Shown piece by piece: positions 8,924-60,798 of a DNA stretch of 64,000 nucleotides. The stretch's first letter is position 1, and each line of letters starts with the position of its first letter. The position numbers were made by a program, and so were the translations under genes. The DNA lies in the NCBI GenBank assembly GCA_963810935.1, contig CAWEPK010000012.1, forward strand, positions 32,001 to 96,000, in the 5' to 3' direction. The notes under the pieces were generated by a model that searched no databases, was not told where the DNA came from, and saw only the letters and a program-made list of their open reading frames with translations. The stretch comes from an uncultured delta proteobacterium. Lineage in GTDB: Bacteria; Desulfobacterota; Syntrophorhabdia; Syntrophorhabdales; WCHB1-27.

Positions 8924-8975
8924 TCCGCTTCATACTTATTTCGTTCCGAGAGAGGTAACAAGTGAAGAAAAGCAG

Positions 8976-9047
8976 AGCCGACGCGGGGATTTGAACCCCG
9001 GACCTGCTGATTACGAATCAGCTGCTCTACCACTGAGCTACGTCGGC
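8976..9047 (-). tRNA. tRNA-Thr (anticodon CGT), CCA not encoded
   Basis: Reverse complement GCCGACG TA GCTC AGTGGTA GAGC A GCTGA TT CGT AA TCAGC AGGTC CGGGG TTCAAAT CCCCG CGTCGGC T folds into a complete cloverleaf. Confidence 0.97.
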
Positions 9048-9183
9048 GCGGTAGGTTAATTATATAGCATAGACGGCCCTTTTCAAGCAACATTGTTTTT
9101 GCCCCGCTTCTTTGCGTCCTCAGGTCGAGAATAAAAGGCATGCTTCGGAAGTCCGGTGACGAACAGGGACGCCGACCCCGGCG

Positions 9184-11025: not shown

Positions 11026-12783
11026 CTACGCTTCAGGGTAGCTGATAACGTCGGAGGGACAGGTCGAGGCACACAGCCCGCATGCCACGCAGGTATCCTG
11101 CTTGATGTGGGCTTTCGGGACTACACTCTCCGTCTGCGGGCCGAAGAGGGCTACAGGCACTTGCACAAGCTCGATCTCGATGGCGCCGTGCGGGCACGCC
11201 TCCTTGCACGAGCCGCAGCCGCTGCACCGCTCTTCGTTGACTTCCGGCAGCACCCGCTCCTCTTCGTCGTCAAGCCGCATCTCGCCCATGGCCCCGAGCA
11301 CCTCGCGCGCCTCCCATCTGGCTGGGCGTGGGTGGCGGATGAAGCCGACGTGGTATCGCTTCCTGCCCCATTTCGTCGGCGACCAGCGCAACTGAGGCTC
11401 CGACCTGTAAGCAGAGAGGAATTCTTTACCGCGCACGACGGCAGCGCAATCGTCGAGCCGGATAACCTTATCGACCGCGAAGCGCATCTGCCTGCCGCCG
11501 CCGGAGACGACGACCGGTCCGCTATCCAACGTTACGTCTTCGCCCTCTTCCAGATGTATGAAGAGCACGCCCTCGCGCCTTGCCGCTTCATAGGCAAGCT
11601 CTTCATAAGAAGGCGCGGCCATGTTGCGCGTGAGCACGTAGACGGTCTTCCCTGCTGCGCGCAAGGTTCTCGCAGCATCGATGAACCTGGACGAGAAGAA
11701 TTCGTAGTACATCCGCGTTGCCGGGTCGTCCGTGCCCAGGTAGAAAAGGCAGGAATCGAAAGGACCGTCCGGGATGGAAATCTCCGGAGGCTCTTCCCTG
11801 TAAAGCCTTGCGTCGGGTGACGCAGGCAGCTTGCCGTTACCGCTCGCCCCTTTTGCTGCATCATGGACGGCTGCGAAACCGGCCCCAAAGCCCGTAAGGA
11901 TCGAGTCCTTGATGTTCATCGGCTCTAAGGCCCCGCCGCATGCATAGACGCCTTCCGCATCGGTAGCGAGCGCCCCTTTTTCACCGACGAAGCCGGAGGC
12001 ATTGAGCGAAAAGCCGAGCACGCCCGCAACGTCCGCAAGCGCCGGGTTCGGGCGCAGGCCGATCGCCATCACTACGTAATCGAACGCCTCTTCTTGGAGC
12101 TTGCCGGCCGAAAAATAGCGCAGCCGCACTTCATCGCCGTCAGCCTCGAAGTACCGCGAGTTGGCCCGGACGAACCTTACGCCGCCGTCGCGGTAGATCT
12201 TCTCCATGAAAAACTCGCTCCCGAACAGGCGCAGGTCGTTGTAGAAAACAGTAATGGCCGGGTTCGCCCTCTGGAGCGTCCACTTGATTTCTCTGATCGT
12301 GTAAGAACAGCAGACGGACGAGCAAAGGGGATACTCTTCGCAGCGCGAGCCGACGCACATGACGAAGGCGATACGGTTAAAATCTGCCGGCAGCTCGCCG
12401 TTCCGCTGGTCGATGAGGGCGTCATATTCGAGGCTCGTCAGTACCTTCGGCCCCTTATAGGCGACCGGGTCGTAAGGCAAAAGGCCCGTAGCGACGACGA
12501 CCTTATCCGCATCTATGGCCCGCCCGTCCGACAGAAGAAGGGAAAAGCCGCCGTTTCTTCTCTGCGCCGATACGATCCTTGCCCCGCTGATTACTGTAAG
12601 GCCGGGGTGGCCGCTTATCTCGTCGTGGAACGCCTTGAAGCCGACCCGGCAGTTGGCAATGCGCGCCATGAGGCCGCCGGGGGCGTCCGCCGCTTCGACC
12701 ACGGTGGCCTTATGGCCTTCTTTCAGTATGACTTTAGCGGCTGATATGCCGCTTATGCCGCCGCCCACTATGACTACGTTCAT
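11026..12783 (-). CDS. HdrA-like FAD/Fe-S protein (one intact and one degenerate TrxR-like domain, C-terminal ferredoxin)
   Basis: MNVVIVGGGISG, CVGSR..CSSVCC cluster motif, C-terminal CSGCGSC..CP and CVACGLC..CP; ATG 12783 overlaps the hdrB-like stop. Confidence 0.85.
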   Translation of the reverse strand: MNVVIVGGGISGISAAKVILKEGHKATVVEAADAPGGLMARIANCRVGFKAFHDEISGHPGLTVISGARIVSAQRRNGGFSLLLSDGRAIDADKVVVATGLLPYDPVAYKGPKVLTSLEYDALIDQRNGELPADFNRIAFVMCVGSRCEEYPLCSSVCCSYTIREIKWTLQRANPAITVFYNDLRLFGSEFFMEKIYRDGGVRFVRANSRYFEADGDEVRLRYFSAGKLQEEAFDYVVMAIGLRPNPALADVAGVLGFSLNASGFVGEKGALATDAEGVYACGGALEPMNIKDSILTGFGAGFAAVHDAAKGASGNGKLPASPDARLYREEPPEISIPDGPFDSCLFYLGTDDPATRMYYEFFSSRFIDAARTLRAAGKTVYVLTRNMAAPSYEELAYEAARREGVLFIHLEEGEDVTLDSGPVVVSGGGRQMRFAVDKVIRLDDCAAVVRGKEFLSAYRSEPQLRWSPTKWGRKRYHVGFIRHPRPARWEAREVLGAMGEMRLDDEEERVLPEVNEERCSGCGSCKEACPHGAIEIELVQVPVALFGPQTESVVPKAHIKQDTCVACGLCASTCPSDVISYPEA

Positions 12784-13463
12784 ATTTTGCCGCTCTCTCC
12801 CATCACGTAGAGCAAAAGGTCCGTCAGGTAGATTACTTTCCTGTCGCGAGCGAATGTCGTCAGGGCCATGTGGCACAGGGGGCAGAAGACGACGAGTGTC
12901 CCCGCCGATTTTTCGAGGATCAGCATGGAAAGCTTTTCGGTGGCCCACTTGCCGGCAAAGAACCGGCCGCCGCCGCAGCATTTGTCCTTCACCTTCTCCC
13001 CTTCTATCTCCCCGCCGAAGAAGGAGATCGCCTCTTCCATGACGTTCTTGTTCCTGATGGCCGTCCCTTCCGGCCGAAGGAGTATGCACCCATAATAGGC
13101 CGTGAAAACGCGCCCTTTCAGGTCGCGCTTCGCCGGAAGACGCGAGAGCGCGTCCCCGTCGATAAGCTCCAGCGGGCTCAGCACGTTGAACGCCTTCTCC
13201 GCGTCCGCCTCCTTCAGGTTCTTATAACAGGCAGGGCAAGGCGCGACTATCCCCGCCCCGCTTGCGCCTTCCGCTTTTTGCAGGTTCTCGCCCGATAGTT
13301 TCAACAGCTCCCTGCGGTCGCCGTACTCCATCGCCCCGCAGCAGTTCCAGTCGGGCACGTCTTTCAGGGTGTGGCCCAGCGCAGCGGCAATCCGCCTCAC
13401 GCCCTTATCGAGGACGCGCGCGGAGCCTGTCAGTGAGCAGCCTGGGTAGTAGGCGTAATCCAT
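12780..13463 (-). CDS. hdrB: Heterodisulfide reductase subunit B-like (two CCG domains, short)
   Basis: YYPGCSL, DWNCCG, PCPAC, YYGC.L.RP, CCGG, CPLC. Confidence 0.85.
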   Translation of the reverse strand: MDYAYYPGCSLTGSARVLDKGVRRIAAALGHTLKDVPDWNCCGAMEYGDRRELLKLSGENLQKAEGASGAGIVAPCPACYKNLKEADAEKAFNVLSPLELIDGDALSRLPAKRDLKGRVFTAYYGCILLRPEGTAIRNKNVMEEAISFFGGEIEGEKVKDKCCGGGRFFAGKWATEKLSMLILEKSAGTLVVFCPLCHMALTTFARDRKVIYLTDLLLYVMGESGKI

Positions 13464-13922
13464 CTATCTCCTTTTCACCTTATGCGGCAGGTGGAAGCTC
13501 ACGTATCCGGTCCATCTGGTCAGGTGCTTCAGGTAGCCCTCCTTAACGAGGAAACCGAAGGCCCGCATGAATACGAACGGCTCGTACACCCTGCCAAGCG
13601 CGGCCACCGACGTTTTGAACGCCTTCTCGAAAGGCGAGGCGACGTGCAGCTCTTCGCGCAGGGCCATGACTACATCCGGCACGCGCACCTGCCACGGGCA
13701 GACCGAAGTGCAGCGGTAGCAGCCGGTGCAGTAGCGGACAAGGTCGTTATCCGCGTTGATCTCTTCCCCCAGGAACAGTTTCGCAAGCAGCTCCTGCGGG
13801 TTGACGCCGAGACCCAGGTCGTTAACCGTGCAGACGGACGCGCATATCTTGCAGCCGAGGCAGACCGAGAGGTCTTCCCAGCGAACCCCGGCGAACTCAA
13901 CAATGTTGTTAATCTTCTGCAT
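13464..13922 (-). CDS. hdrC: Heterodisulfide reductase subunit C-like 2x[4Fe-4S] protein
   Basis: CLGCKICASVC and CTGCYRCTSVCP; immediately upstream of the hdrB-like gene. Confidence 0.8.
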   Translation of the reverse strand: MQKINNIVEFAGVRWEDLSVCLGCKICASVCTVNDLGLGVNPQELLAKLFLGEEINADNDLVRYCTGCYRCTSVCPWQVRVPDVVMALREELHVASPFEKAFKTSVAALGRVYEPFVFMRAFGFLVKEGYLKHLTRWTGYVSFHLPHKVKRR

Positions 13923-14931
13923 CGTGAAGCTCGTCCTCCTGGAACGTCAGATAGGGTATGGCCTCGTCGGCGCTGCGTCCCGACATGTAGCCGAACATGC
14001 CTTGCAGCCTTTCCGATATGCCTTTGAAGTAGCTCGCCAGCGGGATGGCCTGCGGGCAGGCCTCCTCGCACGCGCCGCACCCGACGCACGATTGTGACAC
14101 GTGAAACATTCTGACCAGATGAAAAACCTCGCGCCCCTGGGGCATGGCGCATGATCCGGTCCGCAGCACCTTGTTGAGCAGCGCATCGCCCTTCGGCACG
14201 TATTCATCGCCGTTGAACAGGCAGTCGATGCAGTAGCAGACCGGGCAGACGTCGCGGCAGTTCTTGCACATGATGCATGATGCGAAGTCTTTCTCGAAGG
14301 CGGCCATGTCCGTACGGAAAGGGGCATCCTTTGACGCGGCGGCATCAGTCAAAAGCATCTCCGGCGTCCCCTCCGCAGCATCAGTCTCGATGAGACCCAG
14401 GAACGATTCTCCCTTTTCCGTAAACGAGTACGCCCACAGGCTTCCGTCCGAGGCAACGCGTACGCCCGCGTCCCCAACTACCGCCCTGTGTTCCCTGCAA
14501 GTGCGGCAGGCGCTCCGCATCTTGTCGGATGTCTTGAAATATTCGGTGAGGCCCTGCGCGTCGGAAGGCAGGTCCGTGATTTTCTCCTTCGAAGAAACGG
14601 TGCCGGGGCAATCGATGCTCACCGCAATGATGCCCGCGGGCTCTACCTGGGTCAGTTTCGTCAGCTCGACGTACGACCTTATCTCGCAGGGGCGCAGCAT
14701 CAGCACAATCTTTGCGCCCTTTGAAAAGAGCCGCCGCAGATAGAGCGCGCCGTTCACGTCGAAGTAAGGGTTGAAGAGCACGTAATTGTCAACGGCCCCT
14801 TTGAAGATGCGGTGGCGCACGCCCGCAGGCCCCTTGTCAAACCCGAAGACAAGACAGCCCTCTTCGCTGAGGAACCGGTTGAGGGCGCCTGTGAGCGCGC
14901 CGTCTTTAAGCTTTTTTGCCTGCGTCTGCAT
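13909..14931 (-). CDS. FdhB/FrhB-family-like 4Fe-4S dicluster protein
   Basis: RPCE, IDCPGT, RSACRTC, CIMCKNCRDVCPVCYCIDC, FHLVRMFH..SCVGCGACEEACP; follows mvhD. Confidence 0.75.
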   Translation of the reverse strand: MQTQAKKLKDGALTGALNRFLSEEGCLVFGFDKGPAGVRHRIFKGAVDNYVLFNPYFDVNGALYLRRLFSKGAKIVLMLRPCEIRSYVELTKLTQVEPAGIIAVSIDCPGTVSSKEKITDLPSDAQGLTEYFKTSDKMRSACRTCREHRAVVGDAGVRVASDGSLWAYSFTEKGESFLGLIETDAAEGTPEMLLTDAAASKDAPFRTDMAAFEKDFASCIMCKNCRDVCPVCYCIDCLFNGDEYVPKGDALLNKVLRTGSCAMPQGREVFHLVRMFHVSQSCVGCGACEEACPQAIPLASYFKGISERLQGMFGYMSGRSADEAIPYLTFQEDELHDAED

Positions 14932-15328
14932 GGGCAGCTTCCTTTGTCCCTTCGTACAGGGCGGTCACTTTTTGAACGAAGCGGCGGGCCTCCGCTGCGC
15001 TCACCCAGAAGAGCCGCAGCCTGTCCTTCATGGAGAATGCGTCGAACATCTCCTTCAGGGCCGCGATCTTCCGCCTGGTAAAATAATTTCCCTTGATGAA
15101 ATGGCAATCGCCGGGATGGCAGCCCGCGACAAAGACCGCGTCCGCGCCGTCGAAGATCGACTTTATCACGAACGCCGGGTCCACCCTGCTTGAGCACGGC
15201 ACCTGGACGAGGCGCACCCCATCCGGGTATTTCATCCTGAGGCTGCCCGCCATCTCGGATGCCTTGAACGTGCAGAAGGAGCAGGCAAAACCGACTATCT
15301 GCGGCCGTACCCCGGTCTGTTCTCCCAT
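14906..15328 (-). CDS. mvhD: MvhD-type [2Fe-2S] hydrogenase iron-sulfur subunit
   Basis: GFACSFC, VPCSSRVDP, GADAVFVAGCHPGDCHF, RLRLFWVSAAE. Confidence 0.92.
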   Translation of the reverse strand: MGEQTGVRPQIVGFACSFCTFKASEMAGSLRMKYPDGVRLVQVPCSSRVDPAFVIKSIFDGADAVFVAGCHPGDCHFIKGNYFTRRKIAALKEMFDAFSMKDRLRLFWVSAAEARRFVQKVTALYEGTKEAAHADAGKKA

Positions 15329-15350
15329 ATTTAAGTTCCCCTCTTATTAT

Positions 15351-17024
15351 TCATATGGCCTCCACGAGGGCCGATATCTCATCGTCTATCGCGCTGTCCA
15401 CATAGCCCCTAAGCCTGATGGCGGACGACGGGCATGTCGAGTTGCACAGGCCGCAGCCCATGCATGCCGCCTCCTCGACGCGGACTACCCGCGCCTCTTC
15501 GTCGAACTTTATCGCCTTCGCGACGCACGCCTTCTCGCACATCCTGCAACCGCTGCACCGCTTTATATCGACGGCAGCGACGAACGGGTCCACCGCTGCC
15601 CACCCCGCGCTTAAAAAACCGTAAAGCTTCATTGCCGAGGCCCTGCCGTGGTTGAGCGACTCTTCCATGTCCTTGGGGCCGGAGCACGTGCCTGCTATGA
15701 ATATGCCCTTGACCGCCGTATCGTACGGCCTGAGCTTTACATGCGCCTCGAGGAAGAACTTGTCCTTGTCGAGGGTGATCTTCATGAGCGACGCGATGGC
15801 CGCGCTGTCCGCAGGCGGCGACATGCCGACGGAGAGCACTGCGAGGTCGAATTCCCTTTCGAACGGCTCGTCGAGTAGCGTATCCTCACCGCGCACCAGC
15901 AACCCTTTCGGGCCGGGCACGATCTCCGCTACGTTGCCGCGCGTAAAAAGCGTGCCCTTCTCCTGCGTATCCTCGAAGAACTCCTCTCCGCCGCGCGGGT
16001 GGGCGCGTACGTCCATGTAGAAACACTCGACGTATGACCCATCGTACTTTTGCTTTACCGCCTCGGCGATGCGCAGGGCGTTGATGCAGCAGACCCTCGA
16101 GCAGTACGGCCTTCCCACCTGCTCGTCTCTCGACCCGACACAATGGAGGATGGCCACCCTGGGCTTCGCTGGCAGGGAAAGGCCCTCCCTTCTTTGCTCG
16201 AATTCAACCGTAGTCATGACCCGCTCGTCTTTGCCGTAGGCAAGCTCGGGTTTTGCTGATGCGTCGAAGGGGGAAAACCCGATCGCTATGATGCAGCCGC
16301 CAGCGGTTACCTCCCGCTCGCCGTCAGGGGTCTGTAAGGTCGCCCTGTAGTTTCCGAAAGCGCCCTCGAAATTGCTGACGGCCGTCGAGGTGAAAACCTC
16401 CACGTTGCTGCGGCCGCGCAATTCCGCTTCCATCTCTTCAATGACTGCGGCTCCGTCCTTCCTGATGGGCCATATATCCCTCAGCGTCCTCACGTGCCCT
16501 CCGAGGACAGGCCCTTTCTCGACGAGATAGACGTGCATGCCCATGTTCGACAGGAAAAGCGCCGCGGACAAGCCTGAGACGCCCCCGCCGACAATCAGGG
16601 CCGATTTCGTGACCTCGACCATCTTTTCTTCGAGGGGTACGTAATGGGCTGCGGAATAAAGACCTGCGCGGATCAGGCGTATGGCCTTTTCCGTGTTGCG
16701 GGCGACGTCGTCGCCCACCCAGGAGCAGTGCTCCCTGATGCCCACCCTGCGGAGCAGAAACGGGTTAAGGTTCGATTTTCGGAGGAGGTCCTTGAAAAGC
16801 TCGTCATGGAGCGACGGCGTGCACGAGGCGATGATTACGCGGTCGAGCCCTTCCTTCTCGATGCTCTCACGTATCATGTCCTGGCCCGGCTCCGAGCAGA
16901 CAAAGGGGTAATCGGATGCGACGATGACGTTAGGGAATGTGCTGAAGTAGTCGCGGACCTTCCGCACGTCAACCGTGTGCTTGATATTGTGCCCGCAATG
17001 GCAGATAAATATGCCTGTCTTCAT
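15351..17024 (-). CDS. hdrA: HdrA family flavoprotein (N-terminal domain + FAD domain + C-terminal ferredoxin; lacks the inserted ferredoxin)
   Basis: [54 protein letters not shown], two CxxCxxC..CP motifs; ATGA overlap with the upstream gene. Confidence 0.9.
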   Translation of the reverse strand: MKTGIFICHCGHNIKHTVDVRKVRDYFSTFPNVIVASDYPFVCSEPGQDMIRESIEKEGLDRVIIASCTPSLHDELFKDLLRKSNLNPFLLRRVGIREHCSWVGDDVARNTEKAIRLIRAGLYSAAHYVPLEEKMVEVTKSALIVGGGVSGLSAALFLSNMGMHVYLVEKGPVLGGHVRTLRDIWPIRKDGAAVIEEMEAELRGRSNVEVFTSTAVSNFEGAFGNYRATLQTPDGEREVTAGGCIIAIGFSPFDASAKPELAYGKDERVMTTVEFEQRREGLSLPAKPRVAILHCVGSRDEQVGRPYCSRVCCINALRIAEAVKQKYDGSYVECFYMDVRAHPRGGEEFFEDTQEKGTLFTRGNVAEIVPGPKGLLVRGEDTLLDEPFEREFDLAVLSVGMSPPADSAAIASLMKITLDKDKFFLEAHVKLRPYDTAVKGIFIAGTCSGPKDMEESLNHGRASAMKLYGFLSAGWAAVDPFVAAVDIKRCSGCRMCEKACVAKAIKFDEEARVVRVEEAACMGCGLCNSTCPSSAIRLRGYVDSAIDDEISALVEAI

Positions 17025-19737
17025 CTGCTTATATACTCCAGGCAGCGCGACGCCGCCTCCCCTGCCGAGGCGACCGTATCGGGGACGTCCTTCGGACCGG
17101 AGGCCATGCCGCAAACAAATATGCCTTCCACGTCCGTCTTCGACGGCGTCATGGCGTCAACTTTTACGAACCCGTACGTGTCCCGCTCGACGGAAGCCAT
17201 CGCGCAGAGATCGGCTGTCTCCGCACGCGGCCTTACACCTGTCGCCAAAATGACGAGATCGACCTCAATTTCCGCAAGCTCTCCGGATAACATGTCCTCG
17301 ACCCTGACGAGAAAGCCGTTCTCTCCCTTCGTCACCTCGCCGGGCAGGCCCCTTATGTAGCGCACGCCCGCCTCCTGCGCGCTCTTGTAAAATTCCTCGT
17401 AGTTCTTACCGTAAGCGCGCACGTCTATATAGGAGACGTAAACCTCCGCGCCCTTTATCCTGTCGAACACGATGCTCGCGTGCTTCGCCGTATACATGCA
17501 GCAGACGCGGGAGCAAAAGCGCGCGCCCGTCTGCCTGTCCCTGGAGCCGACGCACTGGATGAAAAAGAAGCGCTTCGGCTCTTTTCCATTTACGATGATA
17601 TCGCCGCCGGTCGGCCCCGTGACAGAGCAAATCCTTTCGAACTCGATGCCCGTCAACACGCCCTCCAGCCTGCCGTACCCGTATTCCCCCTTTTCGGTCG
17701 GGTCATACAAGTCGAAGCCGGGGGCGAGGATTATGCCGTCGCAGGCGAGGTCTATAGTCTCGTCTTTCATCGTGTAGTCGATGGCCTTAACGTCACAGCG
17801 GCGTGCGCATTCGCCGCATTCGATGCATCCCTCGACCTGCCCCGCGAGGCAGCGGGATGCTTCCCTGCCTGCCGCCTCCGGCCCGTAGGCCAGGCGGACC
17901 TCCCGGAAATCGGTAACCCGCACCTCCGGCGCTTCTTCCGGCACGGACTCGCGCCGCGCCGGTGCGACCTTCGCCTTTAATTCGGCTTTCTCGGCCTCCG
18001 TTAAGCGGCTGCGGCAGCCTCTGCTGCGGCCTCGGCAACGGGAAGCGGCTCTCCCTTCATGTACAGGTCCATCGACGCGGCCGCCCGCTTGCCTGCCGCT
18101 ATGGCATCGATCACGTATGCCGGGCCTGTGGCTACGTCCCCTCCCGCGAACACGCCCGGCCGGTCCGTCGCGCCTGTCGCCGGGTCCGCCTTTATCGTAC
18201 CGTCTTCCGCTATAGATATGGAAAGGGCGGCGGCAAAGGACGTCTGCGGCGATTGGCCGAGTGCCGTTATCGCCATATCCACCGGAAGCCTGAATTCCGA
18301 GCCTGCCACGGGCAGCGGGCGCCTGCGGCCGGTGCGTCCGGCGCGCCAAGCTCCATGCGCACGCACTCGATCTCCGAAAGCTCCCCGTCTACGGCTATGA
18401 ACCGAACAGGCGCGGCCAGGTATTCGAGCGCTATCCCTTCGGCTGCGAGGGCCTCCACTTCTTCGGCTGCTGCGGGCATCTCCGCTTGCGGTCCTCCGGT
18501 AGATGACGGTCACGTCACTACCGAGCCTTCTCGCAGTCCGCGCGCAATCGACAGCCGTATTGCCTCCGCCTATGACGGCCGCGCGCTTGCCCACGGAAAG
18601 GAACTGCGAGCTTTCGACTGCGCGCAGGAACGTGAGACCGTCGATCACGCCGGGAATGTCTTCGCCGGGTACATTCAGGGCGATGCCGCGCGGCGCGCCC
18701 GTCCCGATGAAGACCGAGTCGTAGCGGGAGGCGATGTTATCCAGCTCCAGGTCTTTCCCTATCGCGACACCGCATTCGATGCGGACGCCTTCCCTGCGGA
18801 TGTACTCAATCTCTGCGGCAAGCTCCGACTTGGGCAGCCTATACTCCGGTATGGCGTACCGCAGCATGCCGCCCGGCTCGGGCAGGGCCTCGAAGACAGT
18901 CACGTCATGGCCCGCAAGGGCAAGATCATGGGCGCATGCGAGCCCGGCAGGGCCTGCACCCACCACCATCGCCCTCTTGCCCGTTTTCTGCAACTGCGGC
19001 GGCGCAGGCTGGACAGGCGCAAGGTCCGCGATTGCCCGCTTCACGTCGCGTATCGCAAGGGGCTGGTCGATCTCTCCCCTGTTGCAGACGCCTTCGCAGG
19101 GCGCATAGCAGACCCTCCCGCAAACGGAAGGGAACGGGTTCGTCTGCCTTATCAGCAGGTAGGCTTCCTCGAACCTGCCCTCGCTTGCATGTTTAAGGTA
19201 ACCCGGCACGTTCGTATGCACCGGGCAGGCGGCGATACAGGCCGCGTGGCACTGCCTCGACCTGCGCTTGTCGATGCTCGCCTTGTTGGGGATCGCCTGC
19301 GGGAAGGGGATGTAAATCGCCTTGCGCGGTCCGGTCCCCATGTTGAACTCGCTTTTCATCACAACGGGGCAGAACGCCGAGCACGCGCCGCATGCGTTGC
19401 ACTTCGCCGTATCGACGAAGCGTGATTTTTTGAGGAGCCTGACCGAGAACCCGTTGTCCGATTTTTCAATGGAGACGGGGCGCGTCCACGAGAGGAGGTC
19501 GATATTCTTCTTGAGCGCCACCTCGACCATCTTGGGCGAGAGCGTGCACGTAGAGCAGTCGAGGGTGGGGAAGGTCTTGTCGAGCTGGATCATCCTGCCG
19601 CCGATAGACGGCCCGGCCTCGACCATAGTCACACGGACGCCGCACGAGGCAAGGTCCAGGGCTGCGGTAATGCCCCCGATACCACCCCCCACGACGACGA
19701 CGTGCTTATCCGCCCCTTCCACCCGAACTTCACTCAT
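17021..19737 (-). CDS. HdrL-like protein: HdrA FAD domain with inserted ferredoxin and GltD/NfnB-like NAD(P)H-binding module (three apparent frameshifts near 18485, 18335, 18010)
   Basis: Joined from ORFs 18001..19737, 18267..18479 and 17021..18349: [100 protein letters not shown]. Confidence 0.85.
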
Positions 19738-20669
19738 CCTTTTAAAATATCTTTCATCTTGTCCCGAAGCTTGTTCGCGTCGCCCACGAACCCGAAATGG
19801 GCGTACTGGAAGATAGGCGCTTCAGGGTCCTTATTGATCGCGATGATGCACTCCGAGTCCTTCATCCCCGCGATATGCTGGAACGCGCCGGAGATGCCCA
19901 TCGCAAAATAGACCTTCGGCTTGACGGTCTTGCCCGACGTCCCTACCTGGCGCGGTTTTGGGAGCCATGCCTTGTCGATGACCGGCCTCGACGCGGACAG
20001 CGTGGCCCTGAGCATGTCGGCAAGCTCCTCGTAGGCCGGTATCTCGTCTTTGCTGCCTATGCCCCTGCCGACTGAGAGCAGGAAATCGGCCTTCGTGATA
20101 TCGATGGCCCCTTTCTCTTCCTCGACGTACTCGATGAAGCTGCGTCCTGCGTCGGCCTCTACTGCGTCGAGCATCGTCTCCGCCGCCTGGGCGCCTTTCG
20201 GCGCAGCCTGTTCCTTGAAGCTGCCGCTCCTGACCGTTGCTATGAAGCAGCCTTCATGCGGCTTGAACTCGCCGAATATCTTGTCCGAATAATAGCTCTT
20301 CACGAAAACGCCGTTGGCCGCCTCGAAGCCGCTCACGTCCGTAATAAGGGGCATGTTAAGACTGCCCGCAGCGTATGACGCAAGCTCGATGCCCGAAGAC
20401 GAGCCGGTGAAGAGTATCGCGTCCGGCATGCCGCCGGCATCGATTGCCTTTTGAAGTATGCGGACCATGTTGAGCGGGTTTAAGAAGTCGGTCTCCGGCG
20501 CCTGCGCCCTTATTACGGCGTCGCTCAATTCCCCGCTGCCGCATACCGCGCCCGCCGGGGCGAGCAGCCGCACCTCCTTGCCCAGCAGGCGCGCAAGGCC
20601 GATGGCGTCCAGGTTCCGTTCCTCGAAAACTCCGCGCCTTACCTCTGCGACAACCAGTGCGTAGCTCAT
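19734..20669 (-). CDS. etfA: Electron transfer flavoprotein alpha subunit
   Basis: [47 protein letters not shown]; start MSYALV at 20669. Confidence 0.93.
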
Positions 20670-21445
20670 TGATACACCCCCTTGTCCTTCAGGATGCCGA
20701 GAAGCTCCTTGCACACCCCGTCGGGCTCCCCTTGCAGCATGACGGCGCCGCCCTTCTTCGCGGGGTAGACCCACCTGACGAGGTCGATCATGCCTGCCGC
20801 GCCCTCTTTATATGCGCCTGCCTTGAAGACCTTCCTCTCGACCTTCGACGCCTTCCTGATGCCCATGATCGATACGTAGCGCGGCTCGTTGATCCCGCTC
20901 TGAATGCCGAGGACGCACGGCAGCGCAAGATTGACGCGCTCCTGAAGGCCGCCTTCCAGCTCCCGCCGTATCGTCGCCCGGCCCTGCTCGAAGGCATCGA
21001 TGCCGATCACCATGGAGGCATAGGGCAGCCCCAGCTTTGCAGCGAGGATGCCGCCGACGGACGCGAACTGGTCGTCCTCGGACTGCACGCCCGTAAAGAT
21101 CGCGTCGAAGGAGACGGACTCTTTCTTGAGGAAATCATAGAGCAGGCCGGCCCTCGCCATCGGGTCGTTAAAAGGGTCTTCGGACTCGACGAGGAAGCCG
21201 TCTTTCGCGCCCATCGCGATGGCCCTTCTCAGGACCTCGTCCGATTCGGCGTTGCCCATGGATATCGCCGTCACATCGCCGCCCGCCTTCTCCACTATCG
21301 AGACCGCTGCCTCGACCGCGTAGTTGTCCCAGTCGTTCACCTTGAACGGCACCTTCGAAAGATCGACGCGCTGCCCGTCGTCGACGATGCGCAGCTCCTC
21401 TTCCTGTGTAGCAGGGACTCGCTTCGTGAACACCAACAGGTTCAT
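20666..21445 (-). CDS. etfB: Electron transfer flavoprotein beta subunit
   Basis: KRVP, NDWDNYAVE, RAIAMGA, RRELEGG, INEPRY.S..GI. Confidence 0.93.
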   Translation of the reverse strand: MNLLVFTKRVPATQEEELRIVDDGQRVDLSKVPFKVNDWDNYAVEAAVSIVEKAGGDVTAISMGNAESDEVLRRAIAMGAKDGFLVESEDPFNDPMARAGLLYDFLKKESVSFDAIFTGVQSEDDQFASVGGILAAKLGLPYASMVIGIDAFEQGRATIRRELEGGLQERVNLALPCVLGIQSGINEPRYVSIMGIRKASKVERKVFKAGAYKEGAAGMIDLVRWVYPAKKGGAVMLQGEPDGVCKELLGILKDKGVYQ

Positions 21446-22537
21446 CTATATGACCTCCATAAGTATCTCTGAAAGCTCCTTGACCGTCTGGCCCTTCTCC
21501 TTTGCCGCGTCCTCCAGGGTCATGAGGCAGAACGGACAGGCCGTCGCTATGATCTCGGCGCCCATCTGCGCCGCATCGGCAGCGCGGACTTCCGCGTTCC
21601 GCAGACCCTTCGTCTCCTCCACCTCGAAGAACATCCTGCCGCCCCCGCCCTCGCAGCAAAGCGACGTCTCCCTCGAACGGCTGAACTCCAACAGCTCCAG
21701 TCCCCCGATGGAGCGCAGCACGTTCCTGGGCTCGTCGAAAACACCGTTCTGCTTGCCCAGGAAGCAGGGGTCGTGATATGCGACCTTATGCTCGTACTTC
21801 CCCTCGATCTTTAAGGCCCCTTCCCCGATAAGCCGGGCGAGGACCTCCGAATAATGGGATACCTTTATCCCAAGGTCTCCGTATTCTTTTTTGAGGGCGT
21901 TCATGCAATGGGGCGAAAGGGCGATGATCTCGCGCACCCCGTATTCCTTGAGGGCCTCGCAGTTCTCCTCGCGAAGCTCGTCGAAGAGGCCCGTCTCGCC
22001 TATCCTCCTGATCTCGTTGCCGCAGCAGGCCTCCTCTTCCCCCAGCACGCCGAACTCATAGCCCGCCTTGTGGAAGAGGGCAGCGACGTTTGCAGGGATG
22101 ACCATGCAGCGGGGGTCGTACGCCTGGATGCAGCACGTGAAAAGGAGCCGTTTCGACGTCGTCTCGCCGACGTGGGGCACATCGAAGCCCGCCTTCTCGA
22201 CCCACGCTCCCCTTTTGGCGCGCGAGCGGCCCCAGGGGTTCTTCTGCACGAAGGTATTTTCCAATGCCTTCTGGACCGATACGGGTATGCGCCCCTCTTC
22301 GACGAGCGAAGACCTGACCTCGATAACGACTTCCGAAGGTTTTACGTCCCTGGGGCACCGGAGCGTGCAGGCGCCGCAGGAGGTGCAGTACCAGGGGATA
22401 GCGGCCTCCACGTCGCGCATGAACTGTCTTTTTCGGACCATCATGCGGATGTTGAAGGCGGTCCTGCCTGCCTCGGGACAGCTCCCGGTGCACCGGCCGC
22501 ACTGTATGCACGTTAGGAGGCGACTGCTAGGCTCCAA
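21446..22537 (-). CDS. Soluble (Fe-S)-binding CCG-domain oxidoreductase (HdrD/HdrF/GlpC-like)
   Basis: CIQCGRCTGSCP, WYCTSCGAC..RCP, NPWG, ACCG, YHDPCFLG, CCEGGGG, TACPFC; no N-terminal TM segment. Confidence 0.85.
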   Translation of the reverse strand: MEPSSRLLTCIQCGRCTGSCPEAGRTAFNIRMMVRKRQFMRDVEAAIPWYCTSCGACTLRCPRDVKPSEVVIEVRSSLVEEGRIPVSVQKALENTFVQKNPWGRSRAKRGAWVEKAGFDVPHVGETTSKRLLFTCCIQAYDPRCMVIPANVAALFHKAGYEFGVLGEEEACCGNEIRRIGETGLFDELREENCEALKEYGVREIIALSPHCMNALKKEYGDLGIKVSHYSEVLARLIGEGALKIEGKYEHKVAYHDPCFLGKQNGVFDEPRNVLRSIGGLELLEFSRSRETSLCCEGGGGRMFFEVEETKGLRNAEVRAADAAQMGAEIIATACPFCLMTLEDAAKEKGQTVKELSEILMEVI

Positions 22538-23672
22538 GGAGCTTCCTGCCGATCAAAACTTTCTCGACTTCTTTCGTCCCCTCGAAGATCTCGAACACCT
22601 TGGCGTCGCGCCAGTAGTGCTCGACGTCGTATTCCTTCAGGATGCCGTAGCCGCCGTGCAACTGGATCGCCTCGTCCGCGACTTTTACCGCGATCTCACA
22701 CGTGTACCATTTCGCCATTGCGATGAGAGCGGGGTCAACATCTCCCCTGTCGACCGCCGAGGCGGCTCTGTAATAGATGCTTCTCCCCGCTTCCACCATA
22801 GTAGCCATTTCCGCGATCTTGGCCTGGACGATCTGAAGGCCGGACAGGGTCGTCCCGAACGCCTTCCTTTTTTTGACATGGCTTATCGCTTTATCGAGCG
22901 CGCCCTGGGCCGTGCCGATGGCAAGCGAGCACCCGCCCTCGAGCCTGGCGCGGTTGAAAAACTCCATGAGCTGGTAAAAGCCCTTGCCCTCCTTGCCGAC
23001 AAGGTTGCTCTTCGGCACCCGGACCTCTTTGAACGCGATCTCCCCCGTGTCGGAGCACCTGATGGAAAGCTTGCCGTGGAGCTTGCTCGCCTCGTAACCC
23101 GGCCGGTCCGTCTCGACGACGATCGTCGAAAACCTTTCGTGCCGCTTGGGGTTCGTCGGGTCCGTAACGCAGAGGACGACTATGAAGTTCGCGCAGTTTG
23201 CGTTCGTTATGAAGGTCTTGGTGCCCGAAATGACATATTCGTCGCCGTCCGACACCGCCGAGGTCGTCATCGAGGCAACGTCGCTGCCCGCGTCCGGCTC
23301 GGTCGAGGCCATGCCCGCCCGCCAAACTCCTGCGCAAACGGGAGGCAGGTACTTATTCTTTTGTTCTTCAGTGCCGTAGAGGTTGATCATCTGCGTGCCG
23401 AAGTGGCACGCGTTCAGCGTTTGCGCAATGCCCCCGTCTACACGGGCAAACTCTTCGAAGATGAGGCACTGCTCGAAGCTGCCGAGCCCGGCGCCGCCGT
23501 ACTGCTCGGGTATGAAAGCGCCGATAAACCCGTTCTCGGCGGCCTTCTTCCATATTGTGTCGTCGAACTTCTCATTCTCGTCAAGCTCCCTCGCGACGTC
23601 CCTGAATTCTTTTTCGGCGAATTCGCGCGCAGCCTGCCTGATGTCCTTCTGCTCATTCGTCAGGTCGAACAT
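22527..23672 (-). CDS. Acyl-CoA dehydrogenase
   Basis: TEPDAGSD, GTKTFITN, R.AFG, AIQLHGGYG, IFEGT (catalytic Glu); start MFDLT at 23672 after a G-rich RBS. Confidence 0.95.
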   Translation of the reverse strand: MFDLTNEQKDIRQAAREFAEKEFRDVARELDENEKFDDTIWKKAAENGFIGAFIPEQYGGAGLGSFEQCLIFEEFARVDGGIAQTLNACHFGTQMINLYGTEEQKNKYLPPVCAGVWRAGMASTEPDAGSDVASMTTSAVSDGDEYVISGTKTFITNANCANFIVVLCVTDPTNPKRHERFSTIVVETDRPGYEASKLHGKLSIRCSDTGEIAFKEVRVPKSNLVGKEGKGFYQLMEFFNRARLEGGCSLAIGTAQGALDKAISHVKKRKAFGTTLSGLQIVQAKIAEMATMVEAGRSIYYRAASAVDRGDVDPALIAMAKWYTCEIAVKVADEAIQLHGGYGILKEYDVEHYWRDAKVFEIFEGTKEVEKVLIGRKLLGA

Positions 23673-23717: not shown

Positions 23718-23733
23718 AGCAATCTTTATACCA
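23718..23733 (-). promoter_or_regulatory. Sigma54 (-24/-12) promoter for the acd-etf-hdr operon
   Basis: Minus strand TGGTATAAAGATTGCT = GG-N10-GC, about 45 nt upstream of the acd ATG. Confidence 0.75.
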
Positions 23734-23939: not shown

Positions 23940-25172
23940 ATGGACGGTAAGGCCGGAAAAGACCTGTCGGCACACGCCAAAAAGGCCCGTCAAAGAGCAG
24001 GCGGCGGCCAACCCGCCCGAAGGCGGCGCCCGCAGCCAGGCCGAAGAAACAAAAAGGCGACGACGAGTTCCTCCGCCTGAGCGAGTTCAATAAAGCCATT
24101 ATCAGCCACTCTCCCGTCGCAATCTTCACCCTCGACAAGGACGGCGTCTTCACCAGCGTCAACCCGGCCCTCGGCGTCATTTCGGGCCTGGGGCACAACG
24201 CGGGCAAGAAGCTCATCGGGTTCAATTGGCTCAGGAACTCGTACACGATAAAATCGGGACTGGCGGCCCACATCACCCGCGCCCTCGAAGGCGAGCCGTT
24301 CCAGCTCTGGGATTTCCCTTTCATAACCTACGAAGGCGACAGCAATAATTTCATCGACTTCAAGGGCGTCCCCCTAAAAGCGAAAGACGGCACGATCGAG
24401 GGCCTGCTCTGCATGATCGAGGAGACGACCGAGCGCGTAGAGACAAGGGCCCTCCTCATGCAGGAGGCGCGCAAATCGGCGGTCGGCAGGCTCGCGGCGG
24501 GGATCGCCCACGAGCTGAACAACCCCCTCGCTACCCTCGTCGCCCACGTGGAGCTTGCGGTCAACTACCTGAAATCGCTCGAAGCATCGACTGCGGATAA
24601 GGCGCTCCTCGACGAGCTGCGCGACTACCTGTCCGTCATCGAGACCCAGGCGTTCCGCTGCAAGGACGTCACGGGCAGCATCCTCAGCCTGCCCTGGAAA
24701 GAAGGGCTCGAAATTACGGAGATCGATATCAACGGCCTTCTCGACAGCATCGTCGACTCGGCGGACACGGGCAAATCAGAGGCGCGGATCGTCAGGGAAT
24801 TCTCCCCCCTGCCGAACGTCCGTGGCAACGTCGAGCTCTCTGCGGCAGGTCTTTTTGAACCTTATCAGCAACGCGTGCGACGCAGTCGAGGGAAGGATGG
24901 GCGCAACCGTGCGCGTGACGACTTCCGCCCCGGCCGGCGAGGTAGTCGTCCGCGTCCGCGACAACGGCAACGGCGTCCCGGCCGCCATGCTGAATAAAAT
25001 ATTCGAGCCGTTCTTCACTACCAAGGAATCAAAACAGGGGGTCGGCCTCGGCCTGGCCTTGTGCCGCGAGTTCCTTACCCACGCGGGCGGCAGCGTAAGG
25101 GCCGAAAGCAGTCCGGGACGGGGTTCCACGTTCATCGTCACCCTCCCGGCTAAGGGAGCGCGCAAGAGATGA
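23940..25172 (+). CDS. Cytoplasmic PAS-domain sensor histidine kinase (apparent frameshifts near 24052 and 24838)
   Basis: PAS (IISHSPVAIFTLDKDGVFTSVN), H-box GRLAAGIAHELNNPL, N-box QVFLNLISNACDA, DNGNG, IFEPFFTTK, GVGLGL; no TM helices. Start at 23940 is inferred. Confidence 0.8.
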
Positions 25173-26556
25173 TAAGAGTACTTATCGTCGACGACGAAGT
25201 ACAGCTCATCAAGGCATTCAAAAAGCAACTGACCGAGGACGGCATGTCGGTAGTCACGGCCGCCTCCGCCGGCGACGCGCTCGGCATCATTGCAGAGCAG
25301 ACTTTCGACGTGGCGGTCCTCGATATCAAGCTGCCCGACCTGGACGGCCTGGAGCTGCTCCTGCGGATGAAGCAAGCGGAGCCGAGTGTGGAGGTAGTTA
25401 TACTCACGGGCTACGCCTCCATCGACACCGCCATCCGCTCAATGAAGCTGGGCGCGTACGATTACCTGACTAAGCCGTGCAAGATCGCGGAGTCTGGAGA
25501 AAGTGATTGCGAAAGCGTACGAGAACAAGGCCCTCAAAGAAAAAAACATCGTCCTTGCGGAGCACCTCCACAGGATCGGCGCGCACGACGCTTTCATCGG
25601 CGAAAGCAAGCAGATCATGAAGGTGCGGAAGCTGATATCCATAGTGGCCGCCTCCGGCACGCCGGTGCTGATCCTGGGCGAGACCGGCGTAGGCAAGGAG
25701 GTCGTAGCCAGGTCCATACACGACCGTTCCGGGCGCGTCGGCAACCCCTTCGTAACGATCAATGCGAGCGCCCTCCAGGAGAGCATCCTCGAAAGCGAGC
25801 TTTTCGGCTACAAGAGAGGCGCGTTTACGGGCGCCCAGGCAAATAAGCTCGGACTCCTGGAGATAGCCCATAACGGCACTTTTTTCATCGATGAGGTGGG
25901 CGACATGGGCATATCCATCCAGGCGAAGATATTGCGCGCCCTGGAGACGGGGGCCTTCATGAAGCTGGGCGACACGAAGGAGACGAAGGTGGACACCCGC
26001 TTCATATTCGCCACGAACAAGGACCTTAAAAACAAGATAGAAGAAGGTCTTTTCAGGAAGGACCTTTTCTTCAGGATTAACGGCTTCACGATCACCCTCC
26101 CTCCCCTGCGCGAAAGGAAGGGCGACATCCTCCTGCTGGCGAATTACTTCCTCGAAAAACTGAACAGGGGGAGCACCAGAAAGCGCCTATCGAGGGACGC
26201 GGCCGATTGGCTGGTCACTTACGAATGGCCGGGCAACGTCAGGGAGCTGGCAAACGTCGTCGAGCGGTCACTCCTTCTCAGCGGGCCGCGTGAGGAGATC
26301 GTAGTCGATGATTTCCCCGAGTCCATGCAGCCGGACGGAAACGCAGTCGAGGTCAGCGCGGCAGGAGGGCGGCGGCCAGGCGGATGTTTTCGAGCTTGCC
26401 CGTCTCGAAGACGAGCATATCGGAAAGGCGCTTCACTCTGCGATGGGCAACAAGAGCAAGGCCGCGCGGTTACTCGGGATCAGCAGGAAGACGCTCTACA
26501 ACAAGCTCATGCGCGGCACGAGCGGCGAAGGCCGGGGGAAAGCCGGGCAGCGGTAA
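25169..26556 (+). CDS. Sigma54-dependent NtrC-family response regulator (apparent frameshifts near 25492 and 26380)
   Basis: Receiver (VDDE, LDIKLP, KP), AAA+ GETGVGKE, ESELFG..GAFTGA, FIDEVG, WPGNVREL; Fis-type HTH NKSKAARLLGISRKTLYNKL in a shifted frame. Confidence 0.9.
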
Positions 26557-26640
26557 GTGCGCGGCCGGGAAAGGCCGCCGGCAGGACCACCGCGTATACG
26601 GGGCAGTCCCCGGCCAGGAACACCCGGGTAGACTCCCCAC

Positions 26641-26676
26641 TGTATAAATCTTTTACAATTGGGTCATTTTGAGCCA
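26641..26676. promoter_or_regulatory. Tandem putative enhancer sites upstream of the TRAP promoter
   Basis: TGTATAA-ATC-TTTTACA (26641-26657) and TGGGTCA-TTT-TGAGCCA (26660-26676); same 7-3-7 layout as the 23853 site. Confidence 0.55.
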
Positions 26677-26741: not shown

Positions 26742-26757
26742 TGGCATTTTACTTGCA
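26742..26757 (+). promoter_or_regulatory. Sigma54 (-24/-12) promoter for the TRAP-CoA ligase operon
   Basis: TGGCATTTTACTTGCA = near-consensus TGGCA..TTGCA, GG-N10-GC, about 70 nt upstream of dctP. Confidence 0.85.
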
Positions 26758-26827
26758 TTTTTGAATTCGCCGATTGTAAAGTTAGTTAGAATTTAGTTCG
26801 AGCGCAAAGTCCAATTAAGGGGGGATT

Positions 26828-27850
26828 ATGAAAAGGGGAGGTTTTGCGTACGTCCTGGCATCGGTCCTGATCGCATCATTCCTGGCGGCTCCGGCCTGCT
26901 TCGCGGCAGACAAGGTCGTCACGCTCAAAGTCGCCAACTGGTTTCCCATAACCCACCAGCAGAGTGTCCTTCTGGAAGCCTGGTGCAAGGACGTCGAGAA
27001 GAAGACCAACGGCAAAGTTAAGGCCAATTATTATCCCGGCGGGACGCTCGTCCCTGCCGCCCAGGCATACGACGCGGTAACCAAAGGCATCTCCGACGTC
27101 GGCAACCACGTCCTCGGCTACACGGTGGGGAGGTTCCCATTGACCGAGGTCATCGACCTGCCTCACGGCTACCCGAACAACGTCATCGCCACCAGGCTGG
27201 CAAACGCGTTTTATAATAAGTTCAAGCCGAAGGAGTTCGACGATGTAAAGGTGCTCTGGTTCCACTCCCAGGGCCCGGGACTCGTCCACACCAAATCGAA
27301 GCCCATCCATAAGCTCGAAGACCTCAAAGGGTTGAAGATGAGGACTTACGGCTCTAACGCGAAGCTGATGGCGTACCTCGGCGGCGCGCCGGTCGCAATG
27401 CCGATGACCGACGTCTACGATGCCCTCTCCAGAGGCGTAGCCGACGGCCTTATGTGCTCTTACGAGGCCCTCGAAGGCTTCAGGACGGGCGAGCAGATAA
27501 AATACTGCACGGAGAACTACGGGACGTCATACACGGCCTGCTTCGTAGTGGCAATGAACAAAAACAAGTGGAATTCCCTTTCCCCGGACGTCCAGAAGGC
27601 AATCGACGAGCTCAGCCGTGAATACATAACAAAATATGAAGTGATGTGGGACACCATCGAGAAGAGCGGCAAGCAGTACATGCTGAAGAGGGGCGCGACG
27701 ATCATACCCCTCTCCAAGGCCGAAGAGGCCAGGTGGATCGAGAAGGCCCAACCTGTCTACGAAGATTACGTCAGCAGGATGAAGGCCAAAGGTCTGCCCG
27801 GCGCAGAGGCGCTCAAGTTCGTGCGCGACTTCCTGAAAACGGGCGGCTGA
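26828..27850 (+). CDS. dctP: TRAP transporter substrate-binding protein DctP
   Basis: Signal peptide, YPGGTL, GRFP, LEDLKGLKMR, GGAPVAMPMTDVYDALSRGVADG, WNSL.PD.Q. Confidence 0.9.
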   Translation: MKRGGFAYVLASVLIASFLAAPACFAADKVVTLKVANWFPITHQQSVLLEAWCKDVEKKTNGKVKANYYPGGTLVPAAQAYDAVTKGISDVGNHVLGYTVGRFPLTEVIDLPHGYPNNVIATRLANAFYNKFKPKEFDDVKVLWFHSQGPGLVHTKSKPIHKLEDLKGLKMRTYGSNAKLMAYLGGAPVAMPMTDVYDALSRGVADGLMCSYEALEGFRTGEQIKYCTENYGTSYTACFVVAMNKNKWNSLSPDVQKAIDELSREYITKYEVMWDTIEKSGKQYMLKRGATIIPLSKAEEARWIEKAQPVYEDYVSRMKAKGLPGAEALKFVRDFLKTGG

Positions 27851-27892
27851 AAGCCGACACGCGCCGACGTCTTTTCTTGATAGGAGTCCCAG

Positions 27893-28378
27893 ATGAACGG
27901 ATTCAATAATATCGTTCTGAAGTTGGCCAAGTCCATGGACGTCCTGGGCGGGCTCGTTCTCAGCTTCATGATGCTTATCACGGTGGCCGATGTCGTCCTG
28001 CGCGTTTCCGGCAGGCCGATAACGGGCACTTACGAGCTGGTCTTCCTGAGCGGCGCAGTCGTTATCGCCTGCGCCATCCCCATGACTTCATGGGAGGGCG
28101 CGCACGTCAACGTCGATTTCGTGGTCATGGGCTTTTCCAGGACCATGCGAAAGATAGTAACGGTCTTCACCAGGTTCTTCGGCATCGCCTTTTTCTTCCT
28201 CCTGGGATGGAACCTCTTTGCCCTCGGGACGGAGCTTTACAGCAAGGAAGAGGTCTCCCTCACACTCCACGTGCCCATCTACCCCGTCGCATACATTCTG
28301 GGGATATGCGCGTTCGTCGAATGTCTGGTGCTCGTCTCGGACATGATACAGACGCTAATGGAGGCCAGACATGAATGA
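27893..28378 (+). CDS. dctQ: TRAP transporter small permease DctQ
   Basis: Four TM helices, DV.LR..GRPI.GTYE, HVNVD. Confidence 0.9.
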   Translation: MNGFNNIVLKLAKSMDVLGGLVLSFMMLITVADVVLRVSGRPITGTYELVFLSGAVVIACAIPMTSWEGAHVNVDFVVMGFSRTMRKIVTVFTRFFGIAFFFLLGWNLFALGTELYSKEEVSLTLHVPIYPVAYILGICAFVECLVLVSDMIQTLMEARHE

Positions 28379-29672: not shown

Positions 29673-29710
29673 ATGCGCAACGGAATAGAAATAGATTAGG
29701 GGGGCCGGAA

Positions 29711-60777: not shown

Positions 60778-60798
60778 GTTAAGCGCGAGGGGTGATCG

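Follow-up and report, generated by a model that had tools for sequence, protein, structure and literature searches.

How strict anaerobes dispose of the high-potential electrons from acyl-CoA oxidation has one tested answer, the membrane EMO/menaquinone loop. The locus described here raises the question whether a soluble route from the electron-transferring flavoprotein (ETF) exists besides it. The locus lies in a 64,000-nucleotide stretch (the window) of contig CAWEPK010000012.1, from an uncultured delta proteobacterium of the order Syntrophorhabdales. ORFs and Pfam domains place eleven genes on the minus strand from 23672 to 11026, in the order acd-ccg-etfB-etfA-hdrL-hdrA2-mvhD-fdhB-hdrC-hdrB-hdrA3, so the operon reported by an initial annotation of this DNA is present. 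The comparative sequence evidence supports a soluble, conserved and co-transcribed unit, which would link the acyl-CoA dehydrogenase (Acd) and ETF to HdrA-type flavoproteins with a thiol/disulfide terminal.

The genes are tightly packed, as had been described: all junctions overlap or abut, with the 22-nt gap between hdrA2 and mvhD as the sole exception. At the acd end, acd and ccg overlap by 11 nt, ccg abuts etfB, and etfB/etfA and etfA/hdrL overlap by 4 nt each. hdrL overlaps hdrA2, whose ATG is at 17024. At the hdr end, the overlaps are 26 nt for mvhD/fdhB, 14 nt for fdhB/hdrC and 4 nt for hdrB/hdrA3, and hdrC abuts hdrB. No transmembrane segment had been seen in any product, and this holds for both the window proteins and their orthologues in a hydropathy scan, which is not a dedicated transmembrane predictor. 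The maximal 19-residue Kyte-Doolittle score of the window operon proteins was at most 1.67, and no 19-residue stretch of 1.9 or more was found in the orthologues from 40 relative loci (DctM control, 2.93).

All eleven genes carry the domains named in the initial annotation, but hdrL (hdrA1, encoding an HdrL-type HdrA; 17021..19737, minus strand) is broken over several frames in the assembly, which had been missed. The frame changes near 18486-18490, 18332 and 17999-18023. Among the indels listed, frame-restoring ones were found at these three sites in 4/4, 2/4 and 2/4 short-read runs, respectively; the four runs come from a single study, possibly with the source sample among them. Of 40 relative loci, 31 have hdrL as a single ORF of about 900 aa (one long-read copy has 856 aa); 6 have a natural short form of some 430 aa, and in 3 the gene is in pieces. 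Because short-read contigs restore the frame and most relatives hold one long ORF, the three breaks are treated as long-read assembly errors, and a pseudogene or a programmed frameshift was rejected.

An orthologue of HdrA3 (at least 50% identity) was found in 55 of 61 genomes of the order. Synteny was examined in 40 of the 54 other carrier genomes, with long contigs favoured. The ten-gene core, which is the whole set except acd, has the identical order in all 40 loci, so that the etf and hdr halves are linked and the gene order stood up to the synteny check. In 8/40 loci an acd is found on the same strand no more than 1 kb away, and in 23/40 anywhere in the fetched stretch; it was not seen in the other 17 stretches, several of which end at contig ends. 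In a phylum sample, the HdrA3 profile matched 16 of 401 genomes, 14 of them inside the order.

Outside the order, 20 hand-picked loci, chosen via the Fe-S and FdhB protein profiles, were surveyed. Two other Desulfobacterota families, f16 and f50, also have the whole set, arranged in two further gene orders and with acd immediately upstream; six of their loci carry an acd orthologue (67–71%) in that position. The fullest cassettes are L133, L134, L135 and L136. L132 lacks hdrA3, and the candidate of a lone hdrA3 outside the order was rejected because the rest of that cassette lies on another contig. L135 and L136 differ in that their hdrA-mvhD-fdhB-hdrCB block has moved ahead of acd. Linkage kept despite rearrangement argues for a functional unit, and the recurrence of acd in f16 and f50 led us to reject it as a local add-on. 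Cassette parts were also seen in L140, L145, L146, L147 and L151. In L141–L143 and L148, the Fe-S gene and etfBA stand next to hdrA-type genes; acd is present in three of these loci, and hdrCB was not found in their fetched stretches. As a side observation, the shorter BamD-like/etfBA/hdrA-type cassettes (L141, L142, L143, L148, L151) belong to families f14, f18, f53 and f112, mostly with acd. The remaining 6 of the 20 loci have HdrD/HdrA genes without etf.

The ETF port was analyzed gene by gene. acd (22527..23672, minus strand) encodes a 381-aa acyl-CoA dehydrogenase by Pfam, which is closest to ordinary acyl-CoA dehydrogenases. No NCBIfam equivalog reached its cut-off for this protein, and the best score was that of acryloyl-CoA reductase (368 versus a cut-off of 640). 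etfB (20666..21445) and etfA (19734..20669; Pfam ETF and ETF_alpha), both on the minus strand, follow ccg. The best PDB match of EtfB is 1O94 (128 bits), whereas the beta subunits of CarD, LctB, EtfABCX and Bcd-Etf, which unlike 1O94 we take to be bifurcating, gave 66–80 bits. By Pfam and PDB comparison, EtfB is probably non-bifurcating and nearer the canonical ETFs of oxidative pathways.

ccg (21446..22537, minus strand) encodes a soluble BamD/HdrD-like Fe-S protein of 363 aa with two cubanes and a non-cubane domain. Its best PDB match is the cytoplasmic part of EtfD (9OJN, E 4e-54). In a 36-row tree, the protein groups with the BamD-like clade with a support of 94/95, just under the significance threshold, and the same grouping had a support of 96 in a 17-row quick tree. 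A clade of the cassette protein and EMO was rejected by the approximately unbiased (AU) test (p 0.0095; 17 rows, quick tree). By tree placement, the ETF-adjacent protein is sister to BamD, on which ETF docks in class II benzoyl-CoA reductase (BCRII). A membrane EMO stripped of its transmembrane part was rejected by the same placement and AU test, and the membrane EMO can no longer be taken as a lost cognate anchor. Ser208, which replaces a cluster cysteine, and His210 are invariant in 40/40 order and 9/9 further sequences; Phe303 and Phe336, which match the aromatic residues of a BamD-type dock in the CoM/CoB site, are likewise invariant in the 40 order sequences. The genome's own BamD shares the Ser/His states, while its EMO-like protein retains the cysteine. 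According to the accessible part of a preprint on Geobacter metallireducens BCRII, ETF is bound and reduced at BamD, whose distal cluster has a Cys-to-Ser change and whose site is blocked by His (bioRxiv 10.64898/2026.04.10.717634). By analogy, the BamD-like protein may be the ETF dock of the cassette.

The triple HdrA of the initial annotation stands as three HdrA-type genes, but these form one split BamE-like pair and one reduced relay. The short form of HdrA1 aligns to residues 38–447, and HdrA2 (15351..17024, minus strand) to residues 472–1028, of the genome's BamE-like protein; the inserted, N-terminal and C-terminal ferredoxin domains are split between them as in BamE. By this alignment HdrA1 and HdrA2 are a split BamE. 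In HdrA1, Lys750, Glu697 (which we take to be the partner Glu among the bifurcation hallmarks), Cys59, Cys62 and the cysteines of the TrxR-domain [4Fe-4S] cluster are invariant in 10/10 relatives (L023 numbering), and the short forms keep the Lys, Glu, Cys pair and cluster cysteines in 7/7. Lys, Glu and the Cys pair occur together only in HdrA1 among the three HdrAs of the cassette. The Lys, placed beside FAD N5, and the Cys pair are given as HdrA/BamE bifurcation hallmarks in the accessible preprint text (bioRxiv 10.64898/2026.04.10.717634), and HdrA1 is the predicted bifurcating core. HdrA2, consisting of an N-terminal domain, a TrxR core and a C-terminal ferredoxin, has neither the inserted ferredoxin (compared with 5ODC) nor the Cys pair, and carries Arg in 6/10 and Lys in 4/10 at the hallmark site, which suggests that it is the non-bifurcating half.

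A GltD/NfnL-type module, matching NfnA and GltD, sits between the two halves of the HdrA1 ferredoxin domain. This NADP(H) module is present in 31 of 37 intact HdrA1 copies and absent in 6, and judging by these matches it seems to prefer NADP rather than NAD. This ferredoxin domain is described as the low-potential arm in HdrA and BamE (bioRxiv 10.64898/2026.04.10.717634, accessible part). Since the module lies in this arm, NADP(H) would be a co-donor or low-potential acceptor, not a confurcation product.

hdrA3 (11026..12783, minus strand) encodes a reduced, BamE-like pseudo-dimer of 585 aa with one FAD/Fe-S core, one degenerate core and a C-terminal ferredoxin. Its ferredoxin aligns as the C-terminal domain, so an inserted-type domain was rejected. 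Arg164 replaces the hallmark Lys in 39/39 sequences, and in the order the protein has also lost the inserted ferredoxin and its second FAD site. The counterparts in f16 and f50 are fused dimers of 890–990 aa that keep the Lys and both ferredoxin domains. HdrA3 is presumably a deletion form of such a dimer, acting as a reduced relay. Among its best 150 matches, only two full-length clusters were found at 50% identity. A full second HdrA with the hallmark Lys was observed at L133:10371-13349, L135:4380-7217 and L147:7015-9693. The f16 and f50 cassettes may chain two bifurcating HdrA modules in series.

The remaining genes point to the exit of the electrons. mvhD (14906..15328; Pfam FlpD), encoding a [2Fe-2S] adaptor, and hdrC (13464..13922; Pfam 4Fe-4S dicluster), both on the minus strand, are present in 40/40 order loci. 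The FdhB-like protein (13909..14931, minus strand), a putative Fe-S wire, matches PDB entries 9T1S, 7BKB and 8RVU mainly in its C-terminal part; in 10/10 sequences its cysteines are invariant and its N-terminus, which binds flavin in methanogens, is variable. A single mvhD-fdhB pair lies between the two blocks in 40/40 order loci. Downstream of fdhB come hdrC/hdrB-type genes rather than fdhA in 40/40 order and 6/6 outside loci where the next genes are visible. hdrB (12780..13463, minus strand) encodes a short HdrB of 227 aa, compared with about 290 aa, owing to loop deletions. It keeps all ten cysteines of the non-cubane clusters in 39/39 sequences, and His does not block the site. The predicted model (pLDDT 87) has TM-scores of 0.81–0.86 to methanogen HdrB. 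These features suggest that HdrB is a thiol/disulfide site, in line with the thiol/disulfide carrier that had been raised as a possibility.

Taken together, a three-port architecture is probable for this cassette. An imported acid would be CoA-activated and oxidized by Acd, and EtfAB would carry the electrons to the BamD-like protein as the high-potential port, which would hand them on to the HdrA1 cluster next to the bifurcating FAD. NADPH would enter at the low-potential port through the HdrA1 module, or free ferredoxin in the short form. The merged pair would exit at the mid-potential port via MvhD and the C-terminal ferredoxin of HdrA2, and the FdhB-like wire would carry it to HdrA3 and HdrC, the disulfide being reduced at HdrB. 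The net reaction would be reduced ETF + NADPH (or reduced ferredoxin) + 2 disulfides to oxidized ETF + NADP+ + 4 thiols. We infer the single complex, the docking contacts, the direction, the thiol and the acyl-CoA. The same architecture running in the oxidative direction, with reduced ETF and NADPH/ferredoxin confurcating onto a disulfide, has about an even chance of being right. This direction is favoured because of the uptake-ligase-dehydrogenase gene context.

With potentials of about 0 mV for ETF and −450 mV for ferredoxin, these two average about −225 mV, which suffices for a disulfide but not for NAD(P)+. For ETF and NADPH the mean is about −150 to −185 mV, a value near that of disulfides such as CoM-S-S-CoB or the DsrC type. 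As the ETF and NADPH mean matches a disulfide of about −150 mV, the reaction would be near equilibrium and is probably reversible. The confurcation of ETF and ferredoxin onto NAD(P)+ proposed earlier is unlikely: the NADP module is on the low-potential arm and absent in 6/37 copies, and the mean potential is too positive. For the BamOP ETF of G. metallireducens, +16 mV is given in the accessible preprint text (bioRxiv 10.64898/2026.04.10.717634).

Several observations weigh against the proposed route. In 32/40 order loci, there is no acd on the same strand at a distance of 1 kb or less. The two HdrA modules have only one MvhD between them, and in f16 and one f50 genus mvhD comes after the second module, so wiring through MvhD is uncertain. 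The operon itself encodes no thiol partner. DsrC was found in 45/61 order genomes and not found in 16/61, including 11 full-cassette carriers of 93–100% completeness, nor in 3 of 5 outside carriers; with near-complete carriers lacking it, DsrC was rejected as obligate partner. In the only tested HdrA/BamD/ETF system, ETF is the acceptor, as far as the accessible preprint text goes (bioRxiv 10.64898/2026.04.10.717634). A membrane EMO-like protein occurs in 59/61 order genomes, the carrier family f53 has MqnA/D, and MqnP-like and UbiD genes occur.

The window genome itself has a 667-aa membrane EMO-like gene. The EMO-like gene at L061:8346-10349 is at least 63% conserved in 59/61 genomes, and no etf is adjacent in the 5 loci inspected. 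Thus the soluble ETF route holds in that the operon has no membrane subunit, but not as a route taken instead of the membrane EMO, which is near-universal in the order. Since the EMO-like gene is in 59/61 genomes, the cassette as a replacement for a missing EMO was rejected; judged by gene content, the operon is not the sole ETF exit and supplements EMO rather than replacing it.

MqnA/D was found in 4/61 order genomes versus 201/401 phylum genomes (kin are not independent), and in 0/5 outside carriers, 0/7 genomes of f16, 0/11 of f14 and 0/9 of f18. MenD, MenB and MqnC gave no match over cut-off in the window genome (93% complete), the only genome in which the men pathway was checked. At L095:4723-7046 (family f3, no MqnA/D), an MqnP-like prenyltransferase gene and UbiD (TIGR03701 over cut-off) lie just downstream of the cassette. 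Given the MqnP-like/UbiD genes and the EMO-like protein, a quinone route may exist, and quinone freedom is a lead, not a result. The full proposal, a quinone-independent ETF-to-thiol confurcator powered by NADPH or ferredoxin and using a non-DsrC bacterial carrier, in lineages mostly without known menaquinone-synthesis genes, is tentative and rather doubtful as a whole.

Running the same parts in reverse is less likely, though it has the only experimental precedent. HdrB-oxidized thiols would feed HdrA1, which would bifurcate to ETF at high and NADP+/ferredoxin at low potential; Acd would be an enoyl-CoA reductase acting on an imported unsaturated acid, or ETF would be drained by EMO, and the disulfide used by the genome's Flx-Hdr, Mvh-Hdr and MetVF-Hdr would be regenerated. 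The best NCBIfam score of Acd, acryloyl-CoA reductase, would fit, though it is far below cut-off, and the genome has at least three other HdrBC-containing clusters. Also in favour, ETF accepts electrons at BamD in BCRII, where it could drive crotonyl-CoA reduction in vitro according to the accessible preprint text (bioRxiv 10.64898/2026.04.10.717634). Against the reverse direction, Acd is nearest to ordinary acyl-CoA dehydrogenases and EtfB resembles the canonical ETFs of oxidative pathways. In addition, the order's cultured member degrades aromatics syntrophically, as described in the accessible part of PMC5371069, from which a surplus of reduced ETF would be expected.

The unit might also be two co-regulated complexes, Acd-ETF-BamD-like-HdrA1/HdrA2 and HdrA3-MvhD-FdhB-HdrCB, joined by diffusible carriers, and the latter would resemble the Syntrophobacter HdrABC/HdrL cluster. 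The swapped blocks of L135 and L136, the separate hdrA3 in one f50 genus (L093 and L094 versus L132) and the f14, f18, f53 and f112 loci without hdrCB in the fetched stretch would agree with this. But the order's HdrA3, having lost Lys, inserted ferredoxin and second FAD site, has no evident electron input of its own, and the single mvhD-fdhB pair between the blocks in 40/40 loci argues for one unit, which makes two complexes improbable. Lowest stands the view that the FdhB-like protein recruits FdhA in trans, with ETF and ferredoxin confurcating onto CO2 to give formate for a methanogenic partner, which is very improbable. It would draw on the FdhB homology and on two FdhA-like genes with in-frame TGA elsewhere in the window genome, one without an evident beta-subunit neighbour. 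Against it, hdrC, hdrB and hdrA3 would be left without a role, an NADPH co-donor would make the mean potential too positive for CO2 reduction on the values above, and no fdhA follows fdhB in 46/46 cassette loci with the next genes visible; with its unconserved FdhB-like N-terminal region, the cassette does not belong to Fdh-Hdr. Loci of hdr-mvhD-fdhB-fdhA type do occur in Desulfobacterium autotrophicum (PMC2702500, accessible part).

Every part of the proposed soluble unit has known relatives. Like BamDEF with its ETF (BamOP) in G. metallireducens, as far as described in the accessible preprint text, the cassette combines a soluble HdrD-like subunit, in which a Cys-to-Ser change affects the distal cluster and His blocks the site, a permuted HdrA dimer in which one FAD is bifurcating and the other is not, and an MvhD-type adaptor. 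In contrast to BCRII, BamE corresponds to two separate genes, the operon includes etf and acd, the low-potential arm would be the NADP(H) module or ferredoxin, and the mid-potential arm would comprise the FdhB-like protein, HdrA3 and HdrCB; the BamB tungsten subunit, BamC and BamGHI are absent from the operon by ORFs and Pfam. EMO/EtfD (PDB 9OJN; bioRxiv 10.64898/2026.08.18.745454, accessible part) shares the cubane and non-cubane domains beside etfBA, a His at the proximal site and ETF as electron source. Unlike EMO/EtfD, the 363-aa cassette protein has no transmembrane haem-b domain and no hydrophobic segment, falls in a separate clade, and would pass electrons to HdrA, not quinone.

The gene content of the Syntrophobacter fumaroxidans HdrABC/HdrL cluster Sfum_0819-0824 (PMC5947623) and D. 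autotrophicum locus VIII (PMC2702500), as described in the accessible parts of these papers, is found here: hdrL, mvhD, an Fdh/hydrogenase-beta-like (here FdhB-like) Fe-S protein, hdrC, hdrB and hdrA, with no catalytic hydrogenase subunit or FdhA. There, a link to DsrC was proposed and the cluster is uncharacterised. Unlike those clusters, compared by description only, the cassette has a split HdrL, shortened HdrA3 and HdrB, and acd and etfBA, which are not described there. Methanogen Fdh/Elp/Mvh-HdrABC (PDB 5ODC, 7BKB, 8RVU) has the same FdhB-MvhD-HdrA wiring and ten-cysteine HdrB fold, but in the cassette HdrCB would be on the mid-potential arm behind a non-bifurcating HdrA and ETF on the high-potential arm, and no F420, CoM or CoB is expected. 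FlxABCD-HdrABC is likewise a soluble, nicotinamide-coupled bacterial Hdr, its disulfide being DsrC or undefined (Ramos 2015, as cited in the accessible parts of PMC6687939 and PMC5606693); no FlxA or FlxBCD is in the operon by Pfam, and the genome has a separate Flx-Hdr cluster. The combination was not described in the full-text literature searched, while subscription papers and preprint supplements, which lay outside the search, may list the cluster.

As had been reported, the operon lacks a hydrogenase, FdhA, FlxA and BamB, but all four are encoded elsewhere in the genome. Besides two Fix clusters and Fdh and hydrogenase genes, the window genome has a bam-like cluster (G000:C12:1-11580), Flx-Hdr (L066), Mvh-Hdr and HdrL-MetVF. 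BamB-like genes occur in 57/61 order genomes. In the bam-like clusters of L108, L102 and L103, the genes after the BamE-like one are a BamH-like fragment of 240 aa, a membrane EMO-like gene and etfBA. L064:8031-14531 holds a soluble HdrD-like gene, a split HdrA pair, mvhD and an aldehyde-oxidoreductase-family gene, by gene content another BamDEF-like module with a different catalytic partner. L067 has ACS/CODH genes followed by hdrC-hdrB, a 1469-aa HdrL, mvhD, and metV-like and metF-like genes. A dsrAB-dsrC-dsrMK-like cluster (DsrA over cut-off) lies at L130:8032-18001 in the window genome.

Upstream of acd, a sigma-54-type −24/−12 promoter-like site lies at 23719..23733 (minus strand) with one mismatch to the consensus; such one-mismatch sites are within chance in the window (12 found versus 13.4 expected). 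A strict site within 300 nt of the first gene was found in 23/39 relative loci versus 0.18% of shuffles. Often the site immediately precedes the Fe-S gene, so that transcription of the core can do without acd. Sigma-70 and terminator scans gave chance level only. Divergently encoded at 24413..26672 (plus strand) are a sensor kinase and a sigma-54 response regulator, the probable regulator, identified from ORFs that are frameshifted in the assembly (short-read contigs show indels at 24833, 25492 and 26350-26353); a related regulator protein cluster is in 15/40 loci. Farther along, 26742..31249 (plus strand; Pfam) comprises an exact-consensus sigma-54 site (26742-26756), the TRAP transporter genes dctPQM and an acyl-CoA ligase gene, probably the uptake and activation arm. 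Nearby in relative loci, the ligase cluster was found in 22/40 and a DctM-type cluster in 14/40. In other parts of the window, a 394-aa ORF without Pfam match (9822-11006) converges on hdrA3, and a short tRNA-like stretch (8924-9141, from ORF translation only) and a type II secretion-like gene run (55045-62853, from translations only) were noted.

If the proposed route is true, it would give the order a soluble second solution to the disposal of high-potential electrons, and HdrA-type bifurcation a new port arrangement. The near-complete carriers without DsrC would offer a handle on the question of which disulfide bacterial Hdr uses. The natural long (NADP) and short (ferredoxin) forms of HdrA1, and the reduced and full forms of the second HdrA, would serve as built-in comparisons.

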